NCBI GenBank assembly: GCA_009695005.1 | Contig: SIBU01000005.1 | Location: forward strand, 1-48,627 | Reading direction: 5' to 3' | Origin: Candidatus Tayloriibacteriota bacterium | Lineage (GTDB): Bacteria; Patescibacteriota; Minisyncoccia; Phycocordibacterales; SIBU01 | DNA: 48,627 nt | Part shown: positions 1-735 of the stretch, one piece after another | Layout: every line of letters starts with the position of its first letter | Position numbering within the stretch: position 1 is the first letter of the stretch | Made by a program: the position numbers and the translations under genes | The notes under the pieces: model-generated | The model's input: only the letters and a program-made list of their open reading frames with translations | Databases searched by the model: none | Told to the model about the DNA's origin: nothing

Positions 1-1
1 G

Positions 2-388
2 GGGGATGATCGGCCTAGACAATTGGACGTTTCGTCCATGTTGCAAAGTAGAGCTGTAGTAACTCTTAAAAAGGCTACAAAAACTAACTGCAAAAACAGT
101 TGCAAAAGCCAAGGGAATTCTCTCGCCATACATGGCGGGCTTCCCCGCTTTCGCTTACGCGCGAGCCTAAGCGACATTCGACCGGCTGACTTCCGATAAG
201 TCGTCTCGGGTGTTATACATTCGGAATAAGATTTGTGTCGTTCCGCCACAAATCCCAAACTAAGGAACTCGGTACATTTTGTATTTTGCTTGTTTAGAGC
301 AAAACGGCTTAAAAAAATAAACAACCTAGACTTTGTAGACGCATGAACACTCACCTTTTGCACGCGCGTTCGATTCGCGCCATCTCCA
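2..388 (+). ncRNA. ssrA: tmRNA (SsrA)
   Basis: 5' GGGGATG (2-8) pairs with CATCTCC-A (381-388), giving the G3:U70 alanine identity pair. T-arm is GCGCG-TTCGATT-CGCGC (364-380). A pk1-like region precedes an internal tag ORF. CCA is not encoded (..CTCCA-CAAAA). Confidence 0.93.
90..170 (+). other. tmRNA tag reading frame, (A)AKTVAKAKGILSPYMAGFPAFAYARA*
   Basis: Resume codon GCA follows TAACT. 26 codons run to TAA, with an Ala/aromatic-rich C-terminus. Confidence 0.8.
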
Positions 389-588
389 CAAAATTTTCAA
401 AAGCGCCCTCTAGGGCGTTTTTGATTTGAAAATTTTGTGGAGATGAGTAAGCCAACTACTTGGCTTACTTGCGCGAATCGAAGCCCTTCTCCCATATTTT
501 TGAGCAACTGGTGTCGTGAAAAAATGGGAAAGGGGTACTGACCCTGTAAGGGTCGATAAATGTACTCATGGTCGCGCCATCTCCACCA
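369..588. repeat. Palindromic element with inverted and direct copies of the tmRNA 3' end
   Basis: 381-401 and 425-445 form a perfect 21-bp inverted repeat. 471-482 is the reverse complement of 369-380. 572-586 repeats 375-389 directly and continues to give a CCA end at 588. Confidence 0.9.
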
Positions 589-735
589 AGAGAAACGTTT
601 GCAAAATTAGAAATTCGGGGCGTTTTTGCAATGCATCAAAAGCAGCCTGCTATCCGCGAATATGTTCTCGAATTTCTGAAAACTTCTTCTTCGGATTCTC
701 AAACCCCACGCTTTCATTGTATAATTAAAATTGTC

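Follow-up and report, generated by a model that had tools for sequence, protein, structure and literature searches.

What is the structured 197-bp unit that directly follows the tmRNA gene ssrA in a Candidatus Tayloriibacteriota bacterium and closes with a second copy of the gene's own 3' end? The window analysed here is the whole of positions 1 to 48,627 (48,627 nucleotides) of contig SIBU01000005.1 (assembly GCA_009695005.1); no gene lies inside the unit, and the window is also without an integrase. We propose that the element (390-588) is, on balance, a lineage-specific variant of the gene-less, modular tRNA-linked repeats (TLRs), namely a DNA module that encodes a structured RNA on its sense strand. 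To our knowledge, TLRs have been known in Escherichia coli since 1978 without an accepted origin or function. The proposal is built on the anatomy of the element, its membership of a family, arms that co-vary with the host gene, covariation within the core, a strand bias in folding and a patchy distribution among relatives.

The ssrA gene (2-391) and all features of the element given below are on the forward (+) strand; ARAGORN gives 2-389 for the gene, and the match to Rfam RF00023 (96.9 bits) extends over 2-391. Its 3' part consists of the T-arm (364-380), the acceptor 3' strand (381-387) and the discriminator A388, followed by CAA rather than CCA. The end of the T-loop, the T-stem 3' strand, the acceptor 3' strand, the discriminator and one C together form a 15-nt direct repeat, TCGCGCCATCTCCAC, with a proximal copy inside the gene (375-389) and a distal copy at 572-586; 0.02 matches are expected, and two or more occur in 0 of 100 shuffles. 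The direct repeat reported in a preliminary description of this locus is therefore far beyond chance and its distal copy stands, the first copy as given there being one base off. AAA follows the proximal copy and CAA the distal one, so that A-CCA can be read in the distal copy only; over the longer comparison of 375-392 with 572-589, 17 of 18 positions are identical.

Between the two copies, the first module is an A/T-rich trailer (389-424) with a terminator-like GC hairpin (~403-418) and a T-run. The hairpin with its T-run (~401-424) was called by a purpose-written script and missed by a simple terminator scan; it is the one described earlier at 401-420. The antisense arm aA (425-445) follows; it reverse-complements the trailer together with the discriminator and the acceptor 3' strand, matching 381-401 at 21 of 21 positions. 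It carries A, not G, opposite U70 (the tmRNA has G3-U70), and is thus complementary to the 3' strand instead of duplicating the 5' strand. Next comes hairpin H (446-469) with a 10-bp stem (446-455 with 460-469, 10/10) and a 4-nt loop, and then the second antisense arm, aT (471-482), the reverse complement of the T-loop and T-stem 3' strand (369-380, 12/12). Both inverted repeats and the hairpin between them had been recognized before, and they hold at every position.

The remainder of the unit is made up of a type A core (477-557), a three-way junction described by covariance model R1 (best match 86.2 bits), and of the distal sense copy S of the tmRNA 3' end (572-588), in which the repeat is followed by CA to give A-CCA. 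Within the core, P2 (484-534) and P3 (541-553, with loop UGUAA) are separated by the linker GUACUG (535-540) and correspond to the two further hairpins of the preliminary description. To these we add P4 (560-569), an optional mini-hairpin in the fold with a 3-bp stem and loop UACU, lying within the T-loop part of the distal copy; it is also present at some tRNA-Ser and tRNA-Arg copies, the stem reading AUG/CAU, GUG/CAC or GCG/CGC (tmRNAs of relatives included). Folded as RNA, region 340-600 reaches -114.8 kcal/mol (z = -9.5), and none of 200 shuffles is equally stable. For the element alone (425-590) the value is -66.4 kcal/mol (z = -7.2): here aA (through 437-445 with 578-586) and aT both pair with the distal copy and enclose three hairpins.

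The element is not peculiar to ssrA. In the source assembly (793,660 bases in 24 contigs, 89% complete) a DNA search found parts of the element behind other genes, and a survey of 330 nt 3' of each of the 35 tRNA genes and of the tmRNA gene shows the recurring order trailer (often with a terminator-like hairpin), aA, H, aT, core, S. A gene's own aT (12 nt, at most one mismatch) is found no more than 700 nt downstream of 16 of the 36 tRNA and tmRNA genes and upstream of one (1/36), and the arm of one gene lies behind another gene in 29 of 1232 mismatched pairs. Sense copies of the gene's own end show the same polarity (11/36 downstream, 0/36 upstream). The antisense arms thus change from one host gene to the next and the internal core is conserved, which is the pattern that the preliminary description had pointed to. 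Its suggestion of a mini-element targeting ssrA is right as regards a small, gene-less element and wrong as regards the target: at least 17 tRNA identities serve as hosts besides tmRNA, and the unit behind ssrA is one copy of a gene-less repeat found behind many tRNA genes.

Hairpin H is itself a conserved module, with two sequence types among the copies; it is nearly identical behind tRNA-His, and related versions are seen (by eye) behind other tRNAs. At least two core types can be told apart by eye: type A, as at ssrA, and a GC-rich type B with the same layout of arms, hairpin and sense copy. By the same means, type B was found behind Val(gac), Ser(cga), Lys (three tandem units), Cys, His and Met, and loci with both types have B nearer the gene than A. 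Examples of type B are located on contigs C13 and C24 of the source genome (for instance L002:1000-1290 and L004:1270-1500). Tandem units, again counted by eye, occur at Glu (x2), Tyr (x1.9), Lys (x3) and Leu(tag) (x2). The tRNA-Glu and tRNA-Tyr arrays close with a truncated distal copy, and at these genes it must therefore be the proximal end that works.

To model the type A core, 18 examples were aligned and turned into R1. The model gives 22 matches at E 6e-8 or better in the source genome, plus three weak ones. It matches in 75 of 121 genomes of the order, the richest holding at least 38 matches each, and in 2 of 151 genomes of a phylum-wide sample that includes the source genome (1 of 150 others). 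The preliminary description had offered to give way if its architecture turned up nowhere else; the core carried by those 75 genomes is the answer. Pairing statistics were obtained for 68 R1 matches from 46 loci and 11 modelled pairs: standard pairs fill 95.1% of the cells (57.3% when shuffled, at most 51.9% with slid partners) and double-change cells number 227 against 64 in shuffles, values that overstate independence, given that the copies are related and alignment A3 was fitted to the model. RNAalifold, run independently on a MAFFT alignment, finds compensatory changes in 10 of the 11 pairs.

Unpaired positions of the core are conserved as well. Five of the six positions of the P2-P3 linker, G-U-A-C-(U/A)-G, are identical in 63-68 of the 68 cores, and in the P3 loop, (U)GUA(A), the G, U and A are kept in 67-68 of 68. 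In 57 of 67 distinct cores the better fold is that of the sense strand (-26.7 kcal/mol, against -23.5 kcal/mol for the reverse complement; Wilcoxon p = 1.5e-9). A nick site in the P3 loop was considered and set aside: P3 is broken in just 3 of 68 cores, two of which end after TGTAA, and this is too few. The two type A cores that stop right after the TGTAA of the P3 loop are found in the source genome at C13:33281-33347 and C22:25000-25065; one of them is an orphan with tRNA-Arg(tct)-type arms, upstream of tRNA-Lys.

Across genomes, a tRNA or tmRNA gene on the same strand lies upstream of 61 of the 68 cores in the locus, and 53 of these 61 genes are at most 700 nt away; the distance from gene end to core is typically 44-90 nt. 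Hosts include the tRNA genes for Ser, Lys, Cys, Glu, Arg, Leu, Gly, Tyr, Met, Trp, Gln, His, Asn, Ala, Pro, Asp and Val, and the tmRNA gene. A T-stem 3' strand complementary to aT follows 52 of the 68 cores, and aA is present in 32 of them. Since 42 of 67 copies have no terminator-like hairpin between gene and core, co-transcription with the host gene is to be expected. A layout with two terminators, as in E. coli rrB, was also considered and is not general: 25 of 67 copies have a terminator-like hairpin ahead of the arms, and only 9 of 67 have one behind the core.

The distribution among relatives points to turnover. For ssrA we compared 30 loci, 20 of which were usable (an ARAGORN tmRNA call and at least 300 nt downstream); those left out are six without an ARAGORN call, two that were too short, the locus under study and one unlisted. 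An antisense T-arm lies 52-88 nt after ssrA in 9 of the 20 relatives and a sense copy is present in 5, while 11 of the 20 have no antisense T-arm, so that the empty sites which the preliminary description had proposed to look for do exist. The same-genus genome G006 has a type B unit behind ssrA and then a type A unit orthologous to the one described here, with 89.7% identity across 117 nt. Its trailer is likewise orthologous (87.6% identity, window 359-445), and the tmRNA genes of the two genomes give BLAST matches only in parts, at 74-88% (window 1-114, 147-175 and 359-445). The aT and S modules read GGCGG/CCGCC in G006 and GCGCG/CGCGC here, each fitting the T-stem of its own tmRNA. At the ssrA sites of other genomes of the genus we find a type B unit (G002), another type (G003) or none (G001 and G005).

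Similar exchanges are observed at tRNA-Leu(gag), where the source genome and G001 share aT, core and S, with unrelated trailers and H, G002 has a different P2 and the site is empty in G005. Owing to poor synteny and to differing flanks of tRNA-Leu(gag), comparing filled with empty sites in the genus does not yield exact insertion boundaries. We also examined four sequencing runs, all as assembled contigs and two of them RNA libraries. Run X1 holds a strain variant in which 393-433 is exchanged for another GC terminator hairpin, again with complementary trailer flanks; it keeps the tmRNA end and the arm from 434 onward.

The encoded CCA at 586-588 is probably incidental. Most tRNA genes of the source genome do not encode CCA, the discriminator being followed by CA(A). 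We compared 24 pairs of gene and copy, drawn from several genomes: the gene-proximal end continues with CAA in 11 of them, and CCA stands after the distal copy in 4 pairs and after the proximal copy in 1. The ssrA element of G006 has no encoded CCA. The earlier statement that CCA belongs to the distal copy only is accurate for ssrA but does not describe a feature of the family. The polarity of CCA was also considered as a sign that the distal copy is the original gene end, for which 4/24 vs 1/24 is too weak as support.

Some copies lie further from their host gene. Behind tRNA-Asn, four R1 matches lie at distances of 1.1-2.4 kb, and another is found 3.4 kb downstream of tRNA-Ala(ggc); their arms and S match tRNA-Asn and tRNA-Ala(ggc), respectively. 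The genes in between are co-oriented and ordinary (one for a protein of a methyltransferase family, others for small proteins that Pfam does not clearly assign; in two other genomes they resemble, by eye, a short-chain dehydrogenase and a pterin dehydratase), and a recombinase is absent among them. On contig C21 of the source genome (L047:200-2440), about 2.2 kb separate tRNA-Ala(ggc) from a distal type A copy and hold no frame longer than 81 aa on either strand; the start of this region shares short words with the stretch after ssrA in G021 (by eye), and the decay of an island or a long non-coding stretch might account for it. Behind ssrA of G024 (L035:1900-2100) a type A-like core is nested in a type B unit, which suggests that units can insert into one another.

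Transcription, processing, RNA function and manner of spread are what we infer for such a TLR-like module. The unit would be transcribed in the sense direction from the promoter of the host gene, at ssrA by read-through of the terminator. Its arms would then pair with the distal S and close the core into a discrete RNA, the terminal helix of which would repeat the acceptor and T-stem duplex of the host. By analogy, such a scheme would parallel the E. coli TLRs, three of which give read-through small RNAs. As DNA, the unit behaves as a dynamic, non-autonomous module: at the 3' ends of tRNA genes it comes and goes, exchanges its parts one by one and multiplies in tandem, sometimes with 1-3 kb of cargo, and none of the recombinase families searched correlates with it. 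Spread and re-fitting to a new gene might proceed via host recombination, or via template-switching during replication, at the palindromic T-arm and the duplicated S.

Several points weigh against this proposal, in addition to the relatedness of the copies that inflates the pairing statistics. At ssrA a terminator-like hairpin lies before the arms and a site scan found no promoter-like site inside the element, so expression of this copy depends on read-through. The RNA-library contigs of two runs cover tmRNA-like parts of relatives alone. They leave 401-517 uncovered, which says nothing on expression; one contig that ends at 390 beside adapter sequence comes from a different organism, and a contig of 151 nt does contain the type A core of a relative, for which DNA carry-over is possible. 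Wobble pairs (G-U and U-G) outnumber A-C and C-A by 30 to 10, with one pair giving 22 of the 30, and the strand bias of this kind is weak once that column is set aside. Furthermore, the arms fit the proximal gene better than the distal copy (which has 2-nt or P4 insertions), and an RNA that merely needs a closing stem would not require this better proximal fit. The terminal helix also pairs the discriminator, making the tRNA mimicry imperfect, and the re-writing of the arms for a new host gene has no explaining mechanism.

Other explanations are taken here in the order in which they survive. The main rival, unlikely in our view but to be reckoned with, is a miniature mobile element that acts as DNA only and depends on an enzyme: folded as single-stranded DNA it would mimic the 3' end of a tRNA gene and be recombined by a host enzyme of the Xer or HUH type, with H as an extra-helical hairpin (compare attC and the CTX attP) and the core hairpins as DNA signals. 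The alternating sense and antisense copies can form a near-perfect duplex; the tandem arrays and patchy presence among relatives suit such an element, as do the cassette-like versions with co-oriented single genes and the two copies that stop exactly after TGTAA in the P3 loop. A recombinase would be at hand nearly everywhere, as a Xer-like gene (PF00589) is found in 116 of the 121 genomes of the order, usually exactly one. This gene is, however, equally present in genomes without the element and therefore does not discriminate. Neither PF00589 nor PF01797 or PF00078 has a match in the 89%-complete source assembly (serine recombinases, IS110-type enzymes and TnpB were not searched), and the missing Xer-like gene probably reflects the missing 11% of the genome.

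Y1 (HUH) transposases (PF01797) occur in 74 of the 121 genomes and are not associated with the element across the order: both are found in 44 genomes, the core alone in 31, Y1 alone in 30 and neither in 16, and one single-contig genome holds 18 cores and no Y1 match. The better folding of the sense strand also speaks against a DNA-only element. Excision joints and the 197-bp circle junctions that had been suggested as a check were not seen in the four runs, which is a weak test as these consist of contigs only.

More speculative, and quite unlikely, is a protein-less guided cassette system on tRNA genes. The arms would guide the module, as RNA or single-stranded DNA, to a tRNA or tmRNA gene's 3' end, S would restore or duplicate that end, carried promoterless genes would use the strong tRNA promoter, the junction would be catalytic or would recruit an enzyme, and the E. 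coli TLRs would be relics of such a system. The element shares with group II introns (EBS/IBS) and with the IS110 bridge RNA a sequence complementary to the flank of its insertion site, and complementarity of this kind is a hallmark of nucleic-acid-guided targeting. It differs from these guide-bearing RNAs by the lack of an intron or bridge-RNA match in Rfam and by an assembly without a reverse-transcriptase match (IS110-type recombinases being outside the search), and known guides are far shorter than the arms found here.

It is improbable that the locus is the scar of a decayed tyrosine-integrase island or prophage in the T-loop of ssrA, with the direct repeats as attL and attR. A repeat that spans the T-loop to the 3' end belongs to the classical class of crossover sites, and CCA is retained in the distal copy and likewise in ssrA of G001 and G005, where the site is empty. 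None of 29 relatives has, beside its ssrA, a homologue of the gene that comes next here, as would fit a variable region. This longest frame 3' of the element (568-2220) has its first ATG, at 568, within the distal copy of the tmRNA end, but translation more likely starts at the in-frame ATG at 631; its protein has no Pfam match. Set against the scar are the lack of an integrase in the window and in the assembly, and a distal CCA that is not general (4/24). Above all, the core and its gene-matched arms recur behind many tRNAs in 75 genomes, a family that random decay of islands cannot produce. The data on the family thus largely refute the scar, and they bear out the earlier claim that an ordinary att duplication does not explain the structure.

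A cis-regulatory trailer is a distinctly improbable alternative: in a read-through transcript, aA and aT would pair with the tmRNA's own 3' strand and T-arm and so block or mark the tRNA-like domain (for example for RNase III). The perfect complementarity of the arms to the proximal gene (21/21 and 12/12) and their better fit to this copy than to the distal one would be expected of such a trailer, and the minimum-free-energy fold of 340-600 does pair the arms with the proximal gene end. What it leaves unexplained are the conserved core, the distal copy, the tandem arrays and the copies at 1-3 kb distance, and 11 of 20 relatives do without an antisense arm at ssrA.

We regard it as very improbable that the unit interrupts the T-loop as an intervening sequence (be it an intron-like ribozyme or the precursor of a permuted gene), the removal of which would join the tmRNA body to the distal CCA end. 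The distal copy is indeed complete with an encoded CCA, the core has ribozyme-like invariant unpaired bases, and the permuted-tmRNA model RF04321 gives a sub-threshold match at 364-446 (22.9 bits, the gathering score being 47, and confined to model positions 36-94 of 213). Yet the proximal 3' end is intact, the distal copies of G006 and others are without CCA, and no joined form was seen in the contigs. The excisable T-loop insert of the preliminary description, supposed to swap 3' ends, is contradicted by the truncated last distal copies of the Glu and Tyr arrays. At gathering score, a scan of the whole window with Rfam finds tmRNA alone; at E up to 10, 330-700 and three other element loci yield just tRNA/tmRNA and sub-threshold generic hairpins, with no match to RtT (RF00391), small ribozymes or group I or II introns. 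Finally, an assembly or fold-back artefact has a negligible probability: chimeric reads can yield long inverted repeats and contigs of run X1 break at 392, 434 and 586, but a 1002-nt contig of DNA run X2 covers window 1-709 with one letter different (which argues against an artefact, though X2 may be the source sample), another species has the orthologous element at the same site, and 75 genomes hold hundreds of copies.

With hundreds of copies and a clear modular anatomy, the TLR turns from an anecdote into a family that is open to modelling, searching and in vitro tests. If the RNA is functional, it would constitute an abundant, unannotated class of non-coding RNA in ultra-small bacteria; if the arms guide insertion, they would represent a new, integrase-free way to target tRNA genes. 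In practice the units mimic att sites and tRNA fragments, and will mislead island finders and tRNA annotation in Patescibacteria. Full-text literature searches (with supplementary files outside their scope) found no description of such elements in this group, the paper on E. coli TLRs (PMC8144298) being the only one of relevance.

Comparison with known systems brings out what is shared and what is specific. With the islands and prophages of tyrosine integrases the element has in common a direct repeat from T-loop to 3' end, the use of ssrA and tRNA sites and, for some copies, the bracketing of 1-3 kb; it differs in that the unit is 197 bp long without integrase and that its arms and structured core recur at many genes. 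Integron attC sites, the CTX-phage attP(+) and Xer modules resemble it by imperfect hairpins formed from a site and its inverted copy, with extra-helical hairpins, and by arrays of small units, sometimes with one co-oriented gene. Unlike in integrons, no integron integrase is found by the arrays, and the sole tyrosine recombinase is a single-copy Xer-like one whose presence is independent of the element. REP/REPIN and IS200/IS605-derived elements are likewise small, gene-less hairpin repeats with conserved short motifs beside the hairpin, but Y1 genes do not track the element (found in 44 of 75 genomes with it and 30 of 46 without). We know of no REPIN with 12-21-nt arms matched to the neighbouring gene, nor of one with a duplicated gene end.

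The closest likeness in position and layout is with E. coli. [quoted passage not shown] Our own inspection of the tyrV region finds three 178-bp units, each closing with a 19-nt tRNA-Tyr end and each containing a perfect (10/10) antisense copy of the 10-nt ATCCTTCCCC, which comprises the T-loop end, the T-stem 3' strand and the start of the acceptor of tRNA-Tyr. Spacers of 67 and 91 nt separate this antisense copy from the preceding and the following sense copy, respectively. An antisense arm inside a TLR unit is an observation of the present analysis and not a published TLR criterion.

By its position, gene-end copy and antisense arm, the element behind ssrA fits the E. coli-type TLR as an architectural class. 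Like the 178-bp repeats of tyrT/tyrV (rtT/RttR RNA, RF00391) and the TLRs of rrA/rrB/rrF, it lies directly 3' of a tRNA-type or rRNA gene on the same strand; the units end in a 15-19-nt copy of the gene end, are often tandem and are gene-less, and tyrV shows the same order of sense copy, antisense arm, core and sense copy. Nonetheless, homology of sequence or structure is lacking (RF00391 is unmatched), the arms described here reach greater lengths (12 plus up to 21 nt) with a conserved hairpin between them, and CCA usually lies outside the repeat. The core is a covarying three-way junction with at least one further core type in the same genome, and the family occupies up to ~40% of the tRNA genes of a 0.8-Mb genome.

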